This document shows positions 105 through 14,358 of a DNA stretch of 64,000 nt, in pieces (the stretch's first letter is position 1; each line of letters opens with the position of its first letter). Origin of the DNA: Minisyncoccota bacterium. Lineage in GTDB: Bacteria > Patescibacteriota > Minisyncoccia > Phycocordibacterales > UBA918. The stretch lies in the NCBI GenBank assembly GCA_021734905.1, contig JAIPIB010000001.1:71476-135475 (forward strand), in the 5' to 3' direction. Position numbers and translations under genes: made by a program. Below the pieces are notes generated by a model. The model saw only the letters and a list, made by a program, of their open reading frames with translations, had not been told where the DNA came from and ran no database searches.

Positions 105-132
105 TTGACCTTTTTTCACCTACCTGTATAAT
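105..132 (+). promoter_or_regulatory. Candidate sigma70-type promoter (TTGACC-N16-TATAAT) about 460 nt upstream of the 16S 5' end
   Basis: ttgacc at 105-110, 16-nt spacer, tataat at 127-132. It is the only near-consensus -35/-10 pair in the AT-rich 16S leader. Confidence 0.3.
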
Positions 133-597
133 AGCGCCACTGTCCAGTTTGAGGGTATATAGCGCTTATAAGAAGGCGTTTTATTTACTTTCATTGTTTG
201 GAGGATGGTTGTTTTTTGAGAGACTTGGAAGTGTATTTATTAGATATTTCTAATACGTATATTACAAGGTCTGTCTGGCAAAGGTCAGCAGATTACATAT
301 TTCAAATAGTAATCAGCAAGTTACTGTTTGAATGTACGTATAGTTACATAGTTGTAACGACTTTTTAAGTTGTTAAAAATATGGAACGGTACGCATCAGC
401 AAAATTGAATATTGGTAAATATTCCACCAAATGAAGAAGGCAAAAGCAATCATGATCTCAAACATTGTTTGGAATCGTGCATTCTCTTTTGTCTTATCCT
501 TAGAAAATTGTTTGTTGAGGGAGAATAGTAAGTACAGTTCTCCATTACTCACAGACGCAAGATCGCACCAATCACTTCGGTGATTGCGATCCTGTTT

Positions 598-2054
<1,457 letters not shown>

Positions 2055-2207
2055 AATTGGACACGTCGTCGAAAATGGTAACATTTTCACAAACGGCTAA
2101 TTGGTCGATATTTTGTGCCTCAATTGAGCACAAAATAGGCTATAATACCTAACCCTAAAGATGGTATTCGACTCACAGGAAAGACTGAGCTAGGATAAGA
2201 CAAAAGA

Positions 2208-2302
2208 GAGTGAACGCTGTTGATGCACAAAAAGGCACCCGTAAGGGTGCCTTTTTGTGCATCAAAGAACCGTGCCTGCGCACGGTTCGTCAGCGTTCAC
2301 TG
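2208..2302. repeat. Nested palindromic structure in the 16S 3' trailer: an 11-bp outer stem enclosing a perfect 21-bp hairpin and a 9/10-bp hairpin
   Basis: Outer arms agtgaacgctg (2209-2219) and cagcgttcact (2291-2301). Inner hairpin ttgatgcacaaaaaggcaccc-gtaa-gggtgcctttttgtgcatcaa (2220-2265). Second hairpin gaaccgtgc-ctg-cgcacggttc (2267-2288). Confidence 0.6.
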
Positions 2303-2451
2303 ACCGGAGCGATATTTTGTCGACCACAAGGAGATAAAATCGCGAGGTGAGGCCGACAGGCACTTAACGAGTGCAACGAGTTTAGTGACCTGGGCTGAAG
2401 ACTCGAACCGTGCCTGCGCACGGTTCGTCAGCGTTCACTGACCGGAGCGAT
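2267..2451. repeat. Exact 47-nt direct repeat, two copies (2267..2313 and 2405..2451) with a 91-nt spacer
   Basis: gaaccgtgcctgcgcacggttcgtcagcgttcactgaccggagcgat occurs twice identically. Each copy carries the gaaccgtgc/cgcacggttc hairpin. Confidence 0.8.
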
Positions 2452-2504
2452 GTTGATAGAAGATCCTATTCAAAATGAATTGTTTAGACAAGAGGTATTA
2501 CTAA

Positions 2505-2550
2505 TACAAAAAAATAAGCCACCTAGTTATGGGTGGCTCTTGTTTTGTGC
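2505..2550. terminator. Bidirectional rho-independent terminator between the 16S trailer and the convergent minus-strand ORF
   Basis: Stem agccacc (2518-2524) / ggtggct (2532-2538), flanked by an A-tract upstream and a T-run downstream (cttgttttgtg). Confidence 0.6.
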
Positions 2551-2562
2551 ACGGAATCGTCT

Positions 2563-3060
2563 TCAGGTTGTTCTTGTTTGTGTACGCGCGACGATGAGCT
2601 TGCCAAACATTGTGAGGATATAGGGGGTTATAGGGTATGCCTTGATTACCGCAACAGGCCTTATCGGTTGGCGAGAATATGACATCCGTAAACTACCAAC
2701 GAAGCCTTTGTTCGGAAGTACATGTATGTATCCTCCATGAGGACAGAGTTGCTCTCCTTCTTTTATGAATACGACAACCCCTTTCTCTCTTACGTTCTGC
2801 CAAGGAAGATTGTCCAGAGTTGCGTAGACAATTGCAATTATTGGATTTCCAGTCGCGTAAACCGCTTTTTGGTTTTGAAATGGTGTCCGTATCCGAGCTG
2901 GTTTTGATCTCTTTGGTAGCAAGAGGCGAGATCTCTTTCTTGATCCATGAAGAATGTACTTACCTATCGAGAGTCTCTTCAGGCGTTCCATGGTGATTTT
3001 GAATTTACGTGCCTCGGTAGGGCTTATCCTTCGTAGTGCTCCAGCAGTTGTTTTTTCCAT
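2563..3060 (-). CDS. Hypothetical basic protein (165 aa), no family recognised
   Basis: Long ORF with a strong intrinsic terminator right after its stop. Arg/Lys-rich N-terminus. No motif I can name. Confidence 0.4.
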   Translation of the reverse strand: MEKTTAGALRRISPTEARKFKITMERLKRLSIGKYILHGSRKRSRLLLPKRSKPARIRTPFQNQKAVYATGNPIIAIVYATLDNLPWQNVREKGVVVFIKEGEQLCPHGGYIHVLPNKGFVGSLRMSYSRQPIRPVAVIKAYPITPYILTMFGKLIVARTQTRTT

Positions 3061-3186: not shown

Positions 3187-3597
3187 TCACTGAGTCCTAA
3201 ACTGACTTGGAAGCGTGTACCCAGCATCATTATCAGCGGGGTAGGTATTTTTTTGTTTCATGTAGTCTGGTGTAATTGCTTCATTGCCAAACCCGAGCCC
3301 ACTGACGAGTAGGTTAACAATACCCCAAAGACTTATAATGATAACGAAAGCCGAAATGCTCCATATGGTCATTGAACGCGCTTTTTCATGACCTTCTTCA
3401 CTACCACCTGCAAAGATAAAGAAACGTGCTGCATTCCAAACAAATATCAGAAATGCTATCGAGAGCAAGAAGGGTATGAGTGCGCCATCAAGGAATTTAA
3501 GTATATTTGCAAGGAAAGTTTGAATATTCATTACAGTAATCATACCGCAAAAGTACCCAAAATAAGCCGAATTTGCACATATTGACAATAATTTCAT
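3187..3597 (-). CDS. Small integral membrane protein (about 136 aa from the Met at 3597). It loosely resembles VirB2/TrbC-like pilins and similar small proteins common in CPR genomes.
   Basis: Two to three predicted TM helices (LIPFLLSIAFLIFVWNAARFFIF, IWSISAFVIIISLWGIVNLLVSGLGFG). On the minus strand a tattat -10 lies about 7 nt before this ATG, which suggests a leaderless start. The ORF-track start at 3651 would overlap the divergent gene. Confidence 0.45.
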   Translation of the reverse strand: MKLLSICANSAYFGYFCGMITVMNIQTFLANILKFLDGALIPFLLSIAFLIFVWNAARFFIFAGGSEEGHEKARSMTIWSISAFVIIISLWGIVNLLVSGLGFGNEAITPDYMKQKNTYPADNDAGYTLPSQFRTQ

Positions 3598-3650
3598 ATG
3601 TGCTATAATATATATAGAAGGTGGGTCATCGCTCACTAGAGGAGAATACA

Positions 3651-3830
3651 ATGCACGTTGTGAAAAAAGAAAGTAAGGCCGAAATACTCATGGGCTCCAT
3701 TTCTTTTGTTCTTTTCCTTTACCTCTTGATTGGGACGCCAGTATGGATGTCCCTCGCAGAAGGAAAGCCAATCTTCCCCGGTCTGCTCTATGAGCCAGCG
3801 GTGAGATTGATTCAAGCGGTTCTCGGGTAA
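3651..3830 (+). CDS. Small membrane protein (59 aa)
   Basis: gctataat -10 at 3603-3608 and GAGGAGA 7 nt upstream of ATG 3651. One TM helix (ILMGSISFVLFLYLLIGTPVWM). Followed by a hairpin plus T-run at 3854-3885. Confidence 0.35.
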   Translation: MHVVKKESKAEILMGSISFVLFLYLLIGTPVWMSLAEGKPIFPGLLYEPAVRLIQAVLG

Positions 3831-3853: not shown

Positions 3854-3936
3854 CGGGAGCGATTCATTTCGCACCCGGCTTTTTTAGTGTCGATAATACA
3901 AAACGCCGACATGCGCGCATGCCGGCGTTTTGTATT
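3854..3936. terminator. Two adjacent hairpins: terminator for the plus small ORF (3854-3885) and a bidirectional hairpin aaaacgccg..cggcgtttt (3901-3931) that serves the minus-strand tRNA
   Basis: gggagcga/tcgcaccc stem followed by ggctttttt. Perfect 9-bp stem aaaacgccg / cggcgtttt flanked by T/A runs. Confidence 0.55.
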
Positions 3937-3962
3937 TAATTTTGGATATTTTACGTACTTTG

Positions 3963-4036
3963 TCCGCGCTCTAGGATTCGAACCTAGGACCCTCCGAGTA
4001 TCAGTCGAATGCTCTAGCCAACTGAGCTAAGCGCGG
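3963..4036 (-). tRNA. tRNA-Ile (anticodon GAU)
   Basis: The reverse complement folds as a cloverleaf: acceptor CCGCGCT/AGCGCGG, D-stem GCTC/GAGC, anticodon stem TTCGA/TCGGA with loop CTGATAC (anticodon GAT), T-arm CTAGG-TTCGAAT-CCTAG, discriminator A. No encoded CCA. Confidence 0.85.
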
Positions 4037-5185: not shown

Positions 5186-6571
5186 ATGATGCGTCATATG
5201 CAGGGCGCTTCAGAATATTTTAAAGATAAGAAAATAACCGTAATGGGGCTTGGTTTGCTTGGTCGCGGTGTAGGGGATGCTGCCTTTCTGGCGGAATGTA
5301 GCGCGGAGCTTATCGTGACTGACATGAAGTCAGAAGAAGTACTCAAAGAATCACTTGAGAAGCTTTCCGCGTATAAAAACATTACCTATCGGCTGGGGGA
5401 ACACCACGAAGAAGATTTTCGAGGGCGCGACATGATTCTCGTGGCCGCAGGGGTGCCATTTGACTCGGTGTTTGTGGAAGTTGCTAGACAGGATGGAGCT
5501 GAGATCTCAATGAGTGGAGCGCTCTTTGCATCACTTTCAAAAGTTCCGATTATTGGTATCACCGGGACAAGAGGAAAGTCGACAGTGACTCACATGATTC
5601 ATCATGTTCTCAGAACTATGACTGAAGGAGGGAAGGTGCTTCTTGGAGGAAATGTGCGAGGAGTTTCAAACCTGCAGTTGCTGAAAGATGTTGAAGAAGA
5701 TTCTGTTGCAGTCATGGAACTCGACTCGTGGCAATTGCAGGGGTTTGGAGAGAAAAAGATGAGTCCACATATTTCAGTGTTCACCAACTTCATGGAAGAT
5801 CACATGAATTATTACAAAGGCAACATGGGAATGTATTTTGCTGACAAAGCAAATATTTTCATGTATCAAGATGAGCCAGATACTTTCGTAACAACTCGGG
5901 AGGTTCTTGAAAGTGCAGAAGTTTTTGCACGAGAAAAAGGATTTGAGATGGTCCAAAATATCCGACTCGCCGACACATCTATTCTTCCCGATGATTGCCT
6001 TCTTACAATGCCAGGCGAACACAACCGTCTCAATGCAGCACTTGCCATAGAGGCGCTTCGCGCCACTGGACTCACTGATGATGAAATCTTTGAAGGACTC
6101 GCGACATTTCCTGGAGTTCCTGGAAGACTCGAATATCTTGGAGAAATTAAGGGAATGAAAGTATACAACGACAATAACGCAACAACGCCTATGGCGACCG
6201 TTCGAGGGATTGAGGCGGTTGCCGGCAATAAGAACGTAGTTCTTATTGCCGGCGGAACATACAAAGAGATTGACTCGAGCGTGCTTATCGAACCAATCAA
6301 GAAATATTGCAAAAAGTTGGTTCTTCTTCCTGGGACAGGTACAGACAAACTCAAAGGAACCCTCCACACTATTCCAGTTAACTGGAATAGTGTGGAGGGA
6401 GTGACGGGTGGGGAGGTTCTTAAGAATGCGGTGGAGGCCGGGCTCGCCCATGGCGAGCCCGGCGACGTTCTCCTTTTTTCTCCTGGTTTTGCGTCTTTCG
6501 GTATGTTTTTGAATGAGTATGATAGAAATGATCAGTTTGTTGATATCATAAAATCACATGAAACTCTCTGA
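5186..6571 (+). CDS. murD: UDP-N-acetylmuramoyl-L-alanine--D-glutamate ligase
   Basis: N-terminal Rossmann VMGLGLLGRGVGDAAFLAECSAELIVTDMK. P-loop GITGTRGKSTVT. Mur ligase middle and C-terminal domains. Overlaps the murC start. Confidence 0.85.
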   Translation: MMRHMQGASEYFKDKKITVMGLGLLGRGVGDAAFLAECSAELIVTDMKSEEVLKESLEKLSAYKNITYRLGEHHEEDFRGRDMILVAAGVPFDSVFVEVARQDGAEISMSGALFASLSKVPIIGITGTRGKSTVTHMIHHVLRTMTEGGKVLLGGNVRGVSNLQLLKDVEEDSVAVMELDSWQLQGFGEKKMSPHISVFTNFMEDHMNYYKGNMGMYFADKANIFMYQDEPDTFVTTREVLESAEVFAREKGFEMVQNIRLADTSILPDDCLLTMPGEHNRLNAALAIEALRATGLTDDEIFEGLATFPGVPGRLEYLGEIKGMKVYNDNNATTPMATVRGIEAVAGNKNVVLIAGGTYKEIDSSVLIEPIKKYCKKLVLLPGTGTDKLKGTLHTIPVNWNSVEGVTGGEVLKNAVEAGLAHGEPGDVLLFSPGFASFGMFLNEYDRNDQFVDIIKSHETL

Positions 6572-10928: not shown

Positions 10929-12938
10929 TTGGTCCACTTCTGTTATACTTTTCGTATGTCATTTGATCCAAACAGAATTAACTTTTTTGCACAAACTGAT
11001 GCCCGTGGCAAAAATGTCCAGTTTGGTATTAAGGCAAAGGATCGGCAACGTCACGTTTATGTGATCGGGAAAACCGGAATGGGTAAGTCAACGCTTCTCG
11101 AAAATATGGCCGTGCAAGATATCCAGAATGGGGAAGGGATTGCCTTTATTGACCCACACGGCTCTGCAGTTGAAAACCTCCTCAATTATATTCCCGAACA
11201 CCGTGTGAAGGACGTTCTCTATTTTTCACCATCTGATACTGAGTGTCCAGTTTCTTTTAATATTATGGAGGATGTTGGCCCAGACAAGAGACATCTCGTA
11301 GTCTCAGGACTCATGTCTGTATTCAAGAAGATATTTGTTGATCAGTGGTCAGCACGTATGGAATATATTCTTTCAAACACACTTCTCGCACTTCTTGAAT
11401 ATCCGGACTCGACGCTTCTTGGTGTAAATAGAATGCTCTCTGATAAAGATTACCGAAAGCTTGTTGTTGATAATGTGAGAGACCCTGGTGTAAAAGCCTT
11501 TTGGGTAGATGAGTTTGCGAAATATAATGAGCGTTACATGCAGGAGGCGGGGGATGCTATTAAAAATAAAATCGGACAGTTTACTGCGAATCCTATCATT
11601 CGGAATATCATTGGCCAGCCAAGGTCGAGTTTTGACCTTCGAATGATTATGGATGAGAAGAAGATCCTTATTATGAACCTTTCAAAAGGACTCATTGGGG
11701 AAACAAATGCAACACTTTTAGGCTCCATGCTCACAACGCGCATCTATCTTGCTGCCATGAGTCGTGCTGATCTTCCTCCTGAAAAAATGCGTGACATGCC
11801 AAACTTCTACTTTTTTGTGGATGAGTTTCAATCCTTTGCTAATGCTTCCTTTGCAAATATTCTCTCTGAGGCACGTAAATATCACCTCAATCTTACGATT
11901 GCTAACCAATATATTGATCAAATGGAAGAAGAGATTCGAAATGCAGTGTTTGGAAACGTTGGGACGACCATTACATTTCGCGTAGGACCATTTGATGCTG
12001 AAGTACTTGAGACAGTATTTACACCACAATTTTTAGCTCCTGATATTATCAACCTGAGTTTTGCACAAATTTATCTCACGCTCATGATTGATGGTATTGG
12101 ATCACAACCATTCTCTGCGACCACTCTTCCACCAATTGCTCCGCCTCAAACCTCTTGCAAAAATATGGCTCTTGCATCAAGTAGGGCGCAGTTTACGAAG
12201 CCACGTGCTGAAGTTGAGGAATTAATTCATAAATTCCACGAGCCTATTGTCAAGCCAAAAAAAGTTGAGAGAGTAGAGACGATTATTCCACGAGCAGTCT
12301 ATTCATCAGAAAAAAAGAAAGATGTGCCAAGGGAAGCGGTATCAATTCAAAAACCAATAATTCAAACAACTCCTGCAGCACTTACAGAGCAAGGAGCACG
12401 ATCAGTCCCTGAAAAAGCACAAGGTTTTCGAACGGAACAACGGCGAACACAGACTGACAGTGGAGCGCCCGCACGAAGAGAGATGAGCGCTCGGCCAAGG
12501 CAGCAGGTTCAAACATCTGTGCCGAGCAGGGGTCCAGAAAAGCCCAAGTCTCCAATAAAGGCTGATGTTCAGTCTGAGGATCTTAGGACTGTCCTCAAGC
12601 GACTTGCAGCGACTGAGAAGTCAAATAATCCTGGGGATTATAATCACGAAAAAGGTTTTGGGAAAGAGAAGCGAGATCAGCCAGAAAAACCAGAACTTAA
12701 GCGTGCACTGGAGTCACTTGTAAAAAAAGAAGATGGTACAGTACAGAACAATTCTAAGTCAGAAACAGGAAATGAGACTCAGACAAATCAAGAAACAGAG
12801 GCGTTTGTGAACAGAAATACAAATGAGTTAGCAAAAAGTAATTCTACACCTGAGGAGGGTGTTGAGAAAAAACACATTACACCGAAAGAGCTTGAACGAA
12901 TGATGCGTATCACCACAAGTGATAAACCTCCGATATAG
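10929..12938 (+). CDS. P-loop ATPase of the TraD/TraG/VirD4 (type IV coupling protein)-like / DUF87 family with a roughly 300-aa low-complexity C-terminal tail
   Basis: Walker A GKTGMGKST and FIDPHG. TraG-D_C-like block FYFFVDEFQSFANASFANILSEARKYHLNLTIANQYIDQ...FGNVGTTITFRVGPFDAEVLE. Residues about 370-669 are Pro/Ser/Glu/Lys/Gln-rich with no predicted fold. The true start may be the Met at about 10956. Confidence 0.6.
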   Translation: MVHFCYTFRMSFDPNRINFFAQTDARGKNVQFGIKAKDRQRHVYVIGKTGMGKSTLLENMAVQDIQNGEGIAFIDPHGSAVENLLNYIPEHRVKDVLYFSPSDTECPVSFNIMEDVGPDKRHLVVSGLMSVFKKIFVDQWSARMEYILSNTLLALLEYPDSTLLGVNRMLSDKDYRKLVVDNVRDPGVKAFWVDEFAKYNERYMQEAGDAIKNKIGQFTANPIIRNIIGQPRSSFDLRMIMDEKKILIMNLSKGLIGETNATLLGSMLTTRIYLAAMSRADLPPEKMRDMPNFYFFVDEFQSFANASFANILSEARKYHLNLTIANQYIDQMEEEIRNAVFGNVGTTITFRVGPFDAEVLETVFTPQFLAPDIINLSFAQIYLTLMIDGIGSQPFSATTLPPIAPPQTSCKNMALASSRAQFTKPRAEVEELIHKFHEPIVKPKKVERVETIIPRAVYSSEKKKDVPREAVSIQKPIIQTTPAALTEQGARSVPEKAQGFRTEQRRTQTDSGAPARREMSARPRQQVQTSVPSRGPEKPKSPIKADVQSEDLRTVLKRLAATEKSNNPGDYNHEKGFGKEKRDQPEKPELKRALESLVKKEDGTVQNNSKSETGNETQTNQETEAFVNRNTNELAKSNSTPEEGVEKKHITPKELERMMRITTSDKPPI

Positions 12939-14358
12939 GATATGTCCAGATCGTTCTATCTTGTTCTTGTTGTACTCTTTTGGATACCATGGACATCTCA
13001 TGCAGCTGATCGTGATCAATGAGGTGGCATGGATGGGAACTGGTGCGAGTGCGAATGATGAATGGATTGAATTATATAATAGCGGATCTTCAGCCATTGA
13101 TCTCGAAGGATGGGTGCTAACCGACAATGTATCACTAAATATTGCGCTTACCGGTATCCTTAGTACTGACGAATATGCAGTTCTCGAACGAACTGATGAT
13201 ACAACTGTTGAAGGTGTTGCATTCTTAATCTATTCAGGAGCGCTTTCAAATGATGGGAGAACACTGACTTTGCAGCGTTCAGATAATTCTATTGAGGACC
13301 AAGTCGCTGGAGGAGAAAATTGGGAAAACATCGGTGGCAATAATGAGACGAAAGAAACACCCCAAAGAACATCGTCTGGCTGGATAACAGGAGCTCCAAC
13401 CCCAGGAAAGAGTAATATTTTTGGAACAACTGAAAGTGAAGATATGTCGGAGAATTTTTTGTCGTCTGGATCAAATACGAGTGGGGGAGGTTCGTCTTCA
13501 AAAAATGCAGCAGTATCGAGTGTTCAAAAAGTTAAAGCACTAACCCCTGAACCCTTTCTTGTTCTAAAAATTAAAGGACCAAGTCTTGCATATGTTAATC
13601 AAGAAATTTCACTGGAGGCGATACCAAGCGGTATAGGAAAGACACTCATGAATTCACTTGTTTATATATGGAATTTTGGAGATACCTATACAGCGTCATC
13701 AAAGAAAATTTCGCATATTTTTGAATACCCAGGAGAGTATATTGTTGTTACAGAGGCAGTGTATGCAAAGCAGAAGGCTTTAGTGCGACACGAAATTACG
13801 GTACTTCCTGTTTCATTTTCGCTCTTAAAATCAGAGGCTGGTGATGTACTTTTACATAACAATTCAAAATATGAAGTTAATATCAGTGGCTTCATATTAA
13901 AGAGCGATTCTCAGCTTACACTTCCAATGCATACAGTACTGAAGGCGAACGGGACACTTACTATTTCATCGAAACGGTTGCAGTTGCGACCAGGTGGAAT
14001 AATATCTCTCTATGATGCAACAGGGACATTCGTCACATCAAATACAATAAAAGAGCAAAATGGACCTACGACAGAAAAGTCTTTTTCAAATCCTTCACCA
14101 CAAAACGTGCTATATGACACTGAAGAAGTTGTCACTGAACCAGCTTCTGCTAAAAATAGTTCAATTGAAGATCAAGGTGTGGCTATTGAAAAGGATGTTC
14201 TTTTGGAGACAATGATCCCTATTGGGGCAAGAACAGTTGATGGAGTAGAAAATGAAACTGGATTTTTAGGAAACAAAAATATGTTTTATTGGATAGTGTC
14301 AGGGATTATAATTTTGGGTATTTTCAGTCTTTATACGTGGCGGTCGATAAAGGTATAG
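12919..14358 (+). CDS. Lamin-tail-domain (LTD) plus PKD-domain surface protein with a C-terminal TM anchor
   Basis: LTD signature INEVAWMGTGASANDEWIELYNSGSSAIDLEGWVLTD. PKD-like IWNFGDTYTASSKKISHIFEYPGEYIVVTEAVYA. C-terminal hydrophobic helix WIVSGIIILGIFSLYTW. Confidence 0.7.
   Translation: MINLRYRICPDRSILFLLYSFGYHGHLMQLIVINEVAWMGTGASANDEWIELYNSGSSAIDLEGWVLTDNVSLNIALTGILSTDEYAVLERTDDTTVEGVAFLIYSGALSNDGRTLTLQRSDNSIEDQVAGGENWENIGGNNETKETPQRTSSGWITGAPTPGKSNIFGTTESEDMSENFLSSGSNTSGGGSSSKNAAVSSVQKVKALTPEPFLVLKIKGPSLAYVNQEISLEAIPSGIGKTLMNSLVYIWNFGDTYTASSKKISHIFEYPGEYIVVTEAVYAKQKALVRHEITVLPVSFSLLKSEAGDVLLHNNSKYEVNISGFILKSDSQLTLPMHTVLKANGTLTISSKRLQLRPGGIISLYDATGTFVTSNTIKEQNGPTTEKSFSNPSPQNVLYDTEEVVTEPASAKNSSIEDQGVAIEKDVLLETMIPIGARTVDGVENETGFLGNKNMFYWIVSGIIILGIFSLYTWRSIKV

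Follow-up and report, generated by a model that had tools for sequence, protein, structure and literature searches.

What is the cluster of palindromes that follows the 16S rRNA gene in this 64,000-nucleotide (nt) stretch of a Minisyncoccota bacterium (contig JAIPIB010000001.1; the whole stretch is referred to as the window), and how did part of it come to be repeated exactly? An earlier note, made from the letters of the window, had described an 11-base-pair (bp) outer stem enclosing a 21-bp and a 9-bp hairpin, together with a direct repeat of 47 nt, and had offered a miniature inverted-repeat transposable element (MITE), pre-rRNA processing stems or a duplicate of such stems as explanations. 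Direct reading and a repeat finder returned the same coordinates for both stems, both hairpins and the repeat. Comparison with related loci leads us to a different reading. The palindromes very probably belong to a structural element that is conserved and linked to the 16S trailer, and this element probably acts as a plus-strand RNA co-transcribed with the 16S rRNA. With moderate confidence, we interpret positions 2190-2546 as the structured 3′ external transcribed spacer (ETS) of an orphan 16S operon, transcribed together with the 16S rRNA.

A covarying junction next to the leader-trailer helix

The trailer was compared with syntenic loci reached via MurD homologues, namely L006, L008 (complete genome CP064968.1), L009, L010, L011, L019, L021 and L025, which total about 260 kb and whose MurD proteins are 69-82% identical to that of the window. 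In addition, a contig of GCA_021734385.1 (L028), an independently assembled metagenome-assembled genome (MAG), is 99.985% identical to the window over 6.6 kb; besides this near-identical contig, the nearest relative stands at 82% MurD identity.

The outer stem, from now on referred to as the clamp, encloses the 21-bp hairpin (T1) and the 9-bp hairpin (hp9) and closes a three-way junction within the trailer (Table 1). This architecture is common to eight lineages, the window and seven of the eight relatives, with otherwise different sequences in each lineage. The shared plan starts after GGATAAGACAAAAGAGAGT, a trailer segment conserved across all relatives. Its clamp begins with AGUG and ends with CACU, its long perfect hairpin has a G+C core between an A-run and a U-run, and its short hairpin measures 9 bp. 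Judged by eye rather than computed, the T1 stem of the junction-bearing relatives measures about 21-27 bp. In the alignment of the eight junctions (A1), 98.4% of cells are paired and 24 of the 31 pairs show changes on both sides, the compensatory pairs being distributed over the clamp (7 of 11), basal T1 (10 of 11) and hp9 (7 of 9). None of 500 shuffles reached this level of pairing, and sliding the partner by 1-3 columns left at most 49% of cells paired. The fold energy of region 2180-2560 of the window corresponds to a z-score of -12.2 against shuffled sequences. L010, the eighth relative, lacks the clamp, hp9 and the downstream modules described below together and retains a plain terminator; junction and modules occur jointly or not at all.

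T1 looks like a bidirectional intrinsic terminator. Its core, GGCACCC-GUAA-GGGUGCC, is preceded by AAAAA, followed by UUUUU and extended by 9 extra basal pairs. T1 has the G+C-rich stem-loop and subsequent U-tract by which intrinsic terminators are recognized, and the relatives retain both the stem and the U-run. A terminator scan lists the hairpin at the end of the trailer (T2) and not T1, presumably because the scan extends the T1 stem through the U-tract.

Immediately upstream of the clamp, the trailer pairs with the 16S leader to form what is, judging from its complementarity, the expected leader-trailer (LT) helix of pre-16S RNA (PMC11404451). Duplex and co-folding analyses gave 23 bp with one bulge and one G-U pair, and the helix recurs in the five relatives for which a leader is available (L008, L011, L019, L021 and L025). 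The clamp starts at the 3′ edge of the LT helix and has 4 nt in common with it. The proposal of pre-rRNA processing stems thus stands in part: leader-trailer complementarity, for which the earlier note had suggested a search, exists and ends where the outer stem begins, whereas the stems described in that note all pair within the trailer. Both the LT helix and the perfect 21-bp duplex of T1 are, in principle, long enough to serve as RNase III substrates.

The two-arm module and the 47-nt repeat

In all junction-bearing relatives, the clamp 3′ arm is followed immediately by a module of about 110 nt composed of two arms, with the consensus CACUGACCGGAGCGAU - hairpin - (C)GCGAGGUGAGGCC-RACA-NN-CACUUA...UUAGUGA-NN-UGGGCUGA. 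Primary sequence between T1 and T2 is conserved at CACUGACCGGAGCGAU, GAGGUGAGGCC and UGGGCUGA. RNAalifold, applied to seven compact copies, returned the two arms with 26 pairs, 14 of which are kept via double changes; this result rests on a MAFFT alignment and is independent of the covariance model (R1) that was subsequently built from the RNAalifold alignment. Scanning with R1 yielded one strong copy in the window and one to three per locus among the other relatives; some of these score weakly, are incomplete or have insertions of 70-80 nt. Among the 12 best modules, 11 are located in 16S trailers and one follows tRNA-Ile in L009 (2423-2533), where it has a 9-bp hairpin of its own in front and a terminator behind; no R1 copies were detected elsewhere in the related loci. 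All 12 share the strand of the stable-RNA gene upstream of them. In the alignment of these modules (A4), 93.9% of cells are paired, a fraction somewhat inflated by the fitting of A4 to R1, and 16 of the 26 pairs are compensatory, while slid controls reached 41% or less. G-U pairs outnumber A-C combinations by 9 to 3, and in each of the 12 modules the plus strand gives the more stable fold, with a mean advantage of 9 kcal/mol; both observations point to an RNA of the 16S strand. By eye and uncounted, the conserved internal loops look like two Watson-Crick pairs, covarying from GC to AU, between tandem G-A pairs.

Other sequences are shared around tRNA-Ile. Both GCGCGAGCTGAAAAATGCGTATAGCATTTTT and TCGCGAAGCGACAAGTCGATGTT are found downstream of this gene in L009 (2230-2560) and upstream of it in L006 (2580-2790), and the motif TTCGCAAGACYTTGA recurs in module insertions of L009 and L011 as well as near tRNA-Ile in L006. 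The L006 and L009 sequences could represent a further conserved RNA element.

A search of positions 2040-2700 against Rfam 15 at E ≤ 10 returned only miRNA- and sRNA-type hairpin matches on T1, all far below gathering scores, and no match at the gathering score was obtained for the trailers of the relatives that were scanned. A number of individual candidates were considered and rejected. CUGAAGA beside a hairpin recalls a hammerhead ribozyme, but the hairpin is followed by GUCAGCG rather than GAAA, the CUGA box varies (CUGACUG in L019) and there is no Rfam match. Compared by eye, a kink-turn does not fit, with a bulge of 1 nt instead of 3 and GGA/GA becoming ACA/GA in L025, and signal recognition particle RNA, RNase P, 5S, 6S and box C/D RNAs were likewise rejected by eye and by the Rfam scan. 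The arm-1 loop CACAAGGAGA would fit a CsrA-type GGA loop, but half of the modules carry CUAUUCAUAAUG. Anticodon-loop mimicry by UUCAUAA was dropped since the loop varies (UUCCUAA, UGCUUAA), and the idea that GAAUUAGU of the module base-pairs with the 3′ tail of the 16S rRNA was dropped since the segment is not kept in the module of the window.

The direct repeat is exact over 47 nt; counted at 98% identity, it reaches 50 nt. Its two copies are separated by 91 nt, which gives a period of 138. It is very unlikely to be an assembly artefact because L028 carries both copies. Read against the module consensus, the repeat unit corresponds to the 5′ third of a module, made up of hp9, the linker (equivalent to the clamp 3′ arm) and the strand that opens arm 1; what had been taken for a duplicated processing stem is therefore the first third of a larger conserved two-arm module. 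Past copy 2, the sequence leaves the module fit and runs into T2. In relatives with two modules, the second one opens with a 9-bp hairpin, a linker of about 13 nt ending in CACU, and GACCGGA(G/A)(C/U)GAU. All modules conserve the final 16 nt of the repeat, so that similarity is expected there, but the other 31 nt are identical beyond this expectation and hp9 and linker of the two L006 modules are quite different in sequence, which points to a recent event. From its sequence, the repeat very likely arose when a module was partially duplicated or when gene conversion acted on an older second module that was already decaying. Either event, the partial tandem duplication (period 138) or the conversion, would have created as a by-product two equivalent partners for the clamp 5′ arm. 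This arm is equally and perfectly complementary to the second 3′-arm copy at 2429-2439, and the alternative clamps are nearly isoenergetic (-130.8 vs -130.0 kcal/mol, 0.8 kcal/mol apart).

Table 1 Coordinates of the trailer element and of surrounding features in the window.
Feature	Position	Strand	Details
Clamp 5′ arm	2209-2219	+	AGTGAACGCTG; 11/11 paired with 2291-2301
Clamp 3′ arm, also module 1 linker	2291-2301	+	CAGCGTTCACT
T1 hairpin	2220-2265	+	2220-2240/2245-2265, 21/21 paired, GUAA loop
hp9	2267-2288	+	2267-2275/2280-2288, 9/9 paired, CUGC loop; first element of module 1
LT helix, leader strand	480-503	+	Complementary to 2190-2212
LT helix, trailer strand	2190-2212	+	Last 4 nt AGUG (2209-2212) common to clamp 5′ arm
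Module 1, complete	2295-2406	+	R1 114.3 bits, E = 3e-28
Module 1 arm 1	2300-2351	+	Contains 8-bp hairpin 2314-2321/2333-2340
Module 1 arm 2	2352-2395	+	
Degenerate second module	2433-2538	+	R1 4.4 bits, E = 0.88, filters off; only first ~19 nt module-like
Direct repeat copy 1	2267-2313	+	hp9, clamp 3′ arm and CACUGACCGGAGCGAU (5′ strand of arm 1 base)
Direct repeat copy 2	2405-2451	+	Second hp9 (10 bp with 2404/2427), orphan clamp 3′ arm (2429-2439), arm 1 start
T2 bidirectional intrinsic terminator	2509-2546	both	Closes trailer and convergent ORF 2563-3060 (-); terminator scan on both strands and inverted repeat
16S rRNA gene	597-2057	+	Rfam SSU_rRNA_bacteria, 1368 bits, full length
Putative 16S promoter	105-132	+	TTGACC-16-TATAAT
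ORF165	2563-3060	-	165 aa, basic; between T2 and pilin-like gene; no Pfam match
T4SS-pilin-like gene	3187-3651	-	PF18895; converges on 16S trailer
tRNA-Ile(GAU)	3962-4036	-	
murD	5186-6571	+	

Alternatives and the proposed role of the trailer RNA

It is conceivable, although we consider it unlikely, that the trailer is a mere double terminator or insulator between a strongly transcribed 16S gene and convergent pilin-like genes, with an interval between T1 and T2 that has no function as an RNA product. T1 and T2 both show an A-tract, a G+C stem and a T-tract on both strands, the convergent arrangement of the 16S gene and a type IV secretion system (T4SS)-pilin-like gene is conserved in all eight relatives, a similar extended palindrome follows tRNA-Ile at 3895-3936, and L010 has T1 alone, all of which would suit an insulator. 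However, terminators have no need of an 11-bp clamp, let alone a covarying one, that closes on a 3′ arm downstream of the terminator itself, and they need no 110-nt two-arm module with conserved internal loops, compensatory pairs and a strand preference. The three sequences between T1 and T2, conserved at MurD identities of 69-82%, are likewise unexpected of a neutral spacer.

The MITE-like element suggested in the earlier note, or another selfish structured repeat with local amplification, would have the clamp arms as terminal inverted repeats and the 47-nt repeat as a trace of transposition or replication slippage; this now appears quite unlikely. Such an element could account for a copy number that ranges from 0 to 3 across lineages, with none in L010, for the extra copy downstream of tRNA-Ile in L009, for the large insertions in modules and for the exact partial duplication in the window. 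Yet the clamp arms differ by lineage and nevertheless pair, unlike terminal inverted repeats recognized by a transposase, and no target-site duplication surrounds 2209-2301, the flanks being AGAG (2205-2208) and GACC (2302-2305). Every one of the 12 copies points the same way as the rRNA or tRNA gene upstream of it, and no transposase gene is found near the trailer.

The searches for dispersed copies point in the same direction. Allowing up to 3 mismatches, the 47-mer has no further match in the window (none of 100 shuffles gave one), and the element occupies one locus there and stable-RNA trailers only in the related loci. The 22-mer hairpin was searched for in 185,579 species genomes, a set that does not contain the source genome, and found at five loci, in Betaproteobacteria and one Thaumarchaeote; these match the window in the hairpin only, not in the 47-mer, and are unrelated. 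A 21-mer of the repeat had 0 matches in metagenomes, and the module pattern ACTGACCGGARYGAT..GAGGTGAG was found there in the L006 contig only, apart from five chance matches in G+C-rich coding sequence; both outcomes say little about distribution as these collections clearly under-sample the clade. Searches of viral contigs and of phage and plasmid records were likewise negative. As a separate observation, the 22-mer GAACCGTGCCTGCGCACGGTTC is present without mismatch in Methylotenera, Roseateles and two Burkholderiales MAGs (L001 3330-3400; L005, twice at a distance of about 150 nt; L002; L003), with flanks conserved within each locus pair, and looks like an unrelated betaproteobacterial repeat or RNA motif.

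There is only a slim chance that the palindromes act as DNA, for example as protein operators, recombination sites or cruciforms, or that template-switch repair is what keeps them perfect. The junction helices show no G-U excess, and perfect palindromes with compensatory changes are also kept inside murD. However, clamp arms that are 71 nt apart and enclose two hairpins make an unlikely DNA structure, the modules combine an excess of G-U over A-C with non-canonical conserved loops and a uniform plus-strand preference, and junction and modules are gained or lost jointly. A cis-regulatory leader built of riboswitch-like tandem aptamers, or an antisense regulator of a neighbouring protein gene, is very improbable: the tandem structured modules do recall tandem aptamers and a small same-strand open reading frame (ORF) follows the trailer in L019, L021 and L010, but the trailer of the window, L006, L008, L009 and L025 ends in a terminator and faces a convergent gene, L010 has its small ORF without modules, and no Rfam riboswitch matched.

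We thus return to the structured 3′ ETS as the preferred reading. Its modules are flanked by two terminator-like hairpins. We hypothesize that polymerase from the 16S promoter would read through a leaky T1 in a fraction of rounds and stop at T2, and that RNase III would cut the LT helix and possibly also the 21-bp T1 duplex, which exceeds the need of termination by 9 bp. Cleavage would separate pre-16S from a structured trailer RNA of about 300 nt ending at T2, the level of which would be coupled to rRNA synthesis. Tentatively, and with slightly less than even confidence, hp9, arm 1 and arm 2 may represent an undescribed functional RNA class of the Paceibacteria/Kaiserbacteria clade that is made in the 16S precursor and released by processing. 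This could, for example, be a protein-binding, a ribosome-biogenesis-linked or even a self-processing RNA, which the clamp could tether to the LT helix until cleavage. The most likely module function would be a protein-binding or RNA-stabilizing role because the internal loops, including the apparent tandem G-A pairs, are conserved. That the trailer RNA has a specific release-and-bind function is possible but, as judged from its sequence features, rather doubtful.

A number of points weigh against this proposal. In the junction helices, 242 of 248 cells (97.6%) are Watson-Crick, with 2 G-U and 3 A-C, and these helices hence carry no strand signal. For the short-loop hairpins T1 and hp9, complementarity could be kept at the DNA level by template-switch correction of quasi-palindromes, which is less plausible for the clamp, with its distant arms, and for the modules. 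Besides the partial dependence of A4 on R1, the alignments comprise only 8-12 sequences from a single clade. The variable module count, the large insertions and the one lineage without modules indicate that the module function is dispensable or redundant. We infer T1 read-through, RNase III cleavage and trailer RNA stability alike from sequence; should T1 terminate efficiently, the 16S promoter would yield little RNA covering the modules or the 3′ arm of the clamp, and space for a second promoter was not seen. No partner protein or target of the modules was found in this analysis.

Candidate phyla radiation (CPR) bacteria have reduced genomes and unusual ribosomes, and the trailer element touches the question of how an orphan 16S rRNA is processed and its transcription terminated. 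If made and released together with the 16S rRNA, the trailer RNA would be an rRNA-coupled non-coding RNA in a lineage for which very few RNAs have been described, and it would offer a handle for studying pre-rRNA processing from metatranscriptomes.

Genomic setting and comparison with known systems

The MurD protein of the window is 100% identical to a protein of a MAG labelled 'Candidatus Pacebacteria/Paceibacterota' at NCBI and 79-82% identical to Kaiserbacteria proteins; based on these identities, the host is a Paceibacteria/Kaiserbacteria-like CPR/Patescibacteria bacterium. CPR bacteria often have unlinked rRNA genes (10.1101/705046). An Rfam scan found no 23S rRNA gene in the window, making the 16S gene an orphan there. 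A LAGLIDADG homing-endonuclease ORF, indicative of an intron-type insertion, is located inside the 16S gene in L010 (1230-1688) and L011 (3762-4220); the 16S gene of the window is free of it. The 16S 3′ tail (2040-2057) reads GGAUUAAUUCC, compared with GGAUCACCUCC in E. coli, and the CCUCC anti-Shine-Dalgarno core is missing in the window and in all relatives. GGAG, GAGG or AGGA are not enriched upstream of 48 long ORFs (2% vs 7-9% background), and the clade seems not to use Shine-Dalgarno pairing.

ORF165, which converges on the trailer, was considered as a partner protein of the modules and dropped, as it has no Pfam match and its sole homologue, at the same position in L009, is only 26% identical (E = 3e-13); tblastn at E ≤ 0.01 detected no homologues in the other module-bearing loci. 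Two small ORFs within the trailer, 2210-2350 (+, 46 aa) and 2290-2421 (-, 43 aa), are not conserved coding sequences and should not be annotated as genes because the underlying helices turn over completely in sequence among the relatives; nor should the trailer region be annotated as a mobile element. Further downstream, the window encodes a TrwB/VirD4-like coupling ATPase and a lamin-tail-domain/PKD protein (10929-12938, 12919-14358).

The tRNA-Ile(GAU) gene lies on the minus strand in the window and on the strand of the 16S gene in all eight relatives, which implies a local inversion. Just downstream of it, at 3895-3936, is a near-perfect palindrome of 42 nt with T1-like anatomy, i.e. an A-run, a G+C core and a T-run. 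An S-adenosylmethionine (SAM)-I riboswitch is located upstream of metK in L006 (6767-6872) and L009 (6923-7028), while the window has no metK at that position.

Within murD, a perfect 40-nt palindrome, CCCTCCACACTATTCCAGTT|AACTGGAATAGTGTGGAGGG, is found in frame at 6360-6399 and encodes TLHTIPVNWNSVE. The same site carries a perfect palindrome of 36-40 nt, with compensatory changes, in L006, L008, L010, L011 and L019, and the corresponding segment of about 11 aa is absent from MurD of L021 and L025. A second perfect hairpin of 15 bp is located at 6221-6253. The murD palindrome may have entered the gene as an in-frame insertion, or selection may act on an RNA or DNA structure within the gene.

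Several known systems share features with the trailer element. The rrnB T1-T2 region of E. coli consists of tandem terminators behind an rRNA operon and resembles the present arrangement of two terminator-like hairpins about 250 nt apart behind an rRNA gene. Here, by contrast, T1 is perfect, at least 21 bp long and embedded in a covarying clamp, and the interval between T1 and T2 consists of conserved covarying RNA. The 3′ETS-leuZ of E. coli is a short unstructured sponge that is located behind a tRNA and released from an external transcribed spacer. Similarly, the trailer RNA could be released from a stable-RNA precursor and act in trans at a level tied to stable-RNA synthesis; unlike 3′ETS-leuZ, the candidate is a multi-helix RNA of about 300 nt behind a 16S gene. 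With MITEs and with repetitive extragenic palindromes and bacterial interspersed mosaic elements (REP/BIME) it has in common palindromic units between convergent genes and a copy number that varies by lineage. It differs from both in that it is not dispersed in the window and the related loci, lacks target-site duplications and conserved terminal repeats, keeps a single orientation and has a two-arm fold with compensatory changes. REP/BIME in particular was rejected, as these are palindromes of about 35 nt present in hundreds of copies, often in alternating orientation, whereas the units seen here measure about 110-140 nt and occur in one orientation at a single locus.

In being defined by covariation and confined to a narrow lineage, the element is similar to orphan structured RNA motifs identified by comparative genomics (PMC5737381, PMC2864571). 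Unlike those motifs, it is modular and physically tied to a 16S processing helix, and it matches no family of Rfam 15. The long leader/trailer pairing, kept in relatives, is shared with bacterial pre-16S LT helices and RNase III processing stems (PMC11404451, PMC10250234), to which the locus adds an intra-trailer three-way junction and tandem modules downstream of the helix. The abstract of a published survey of LT helices, and a keyword search of that survey, show no mention of such an appendage. We regard the element as a variant form of rRNA 3′ spacer, with a clamp-enclosed terminator and tandem covarying modules.

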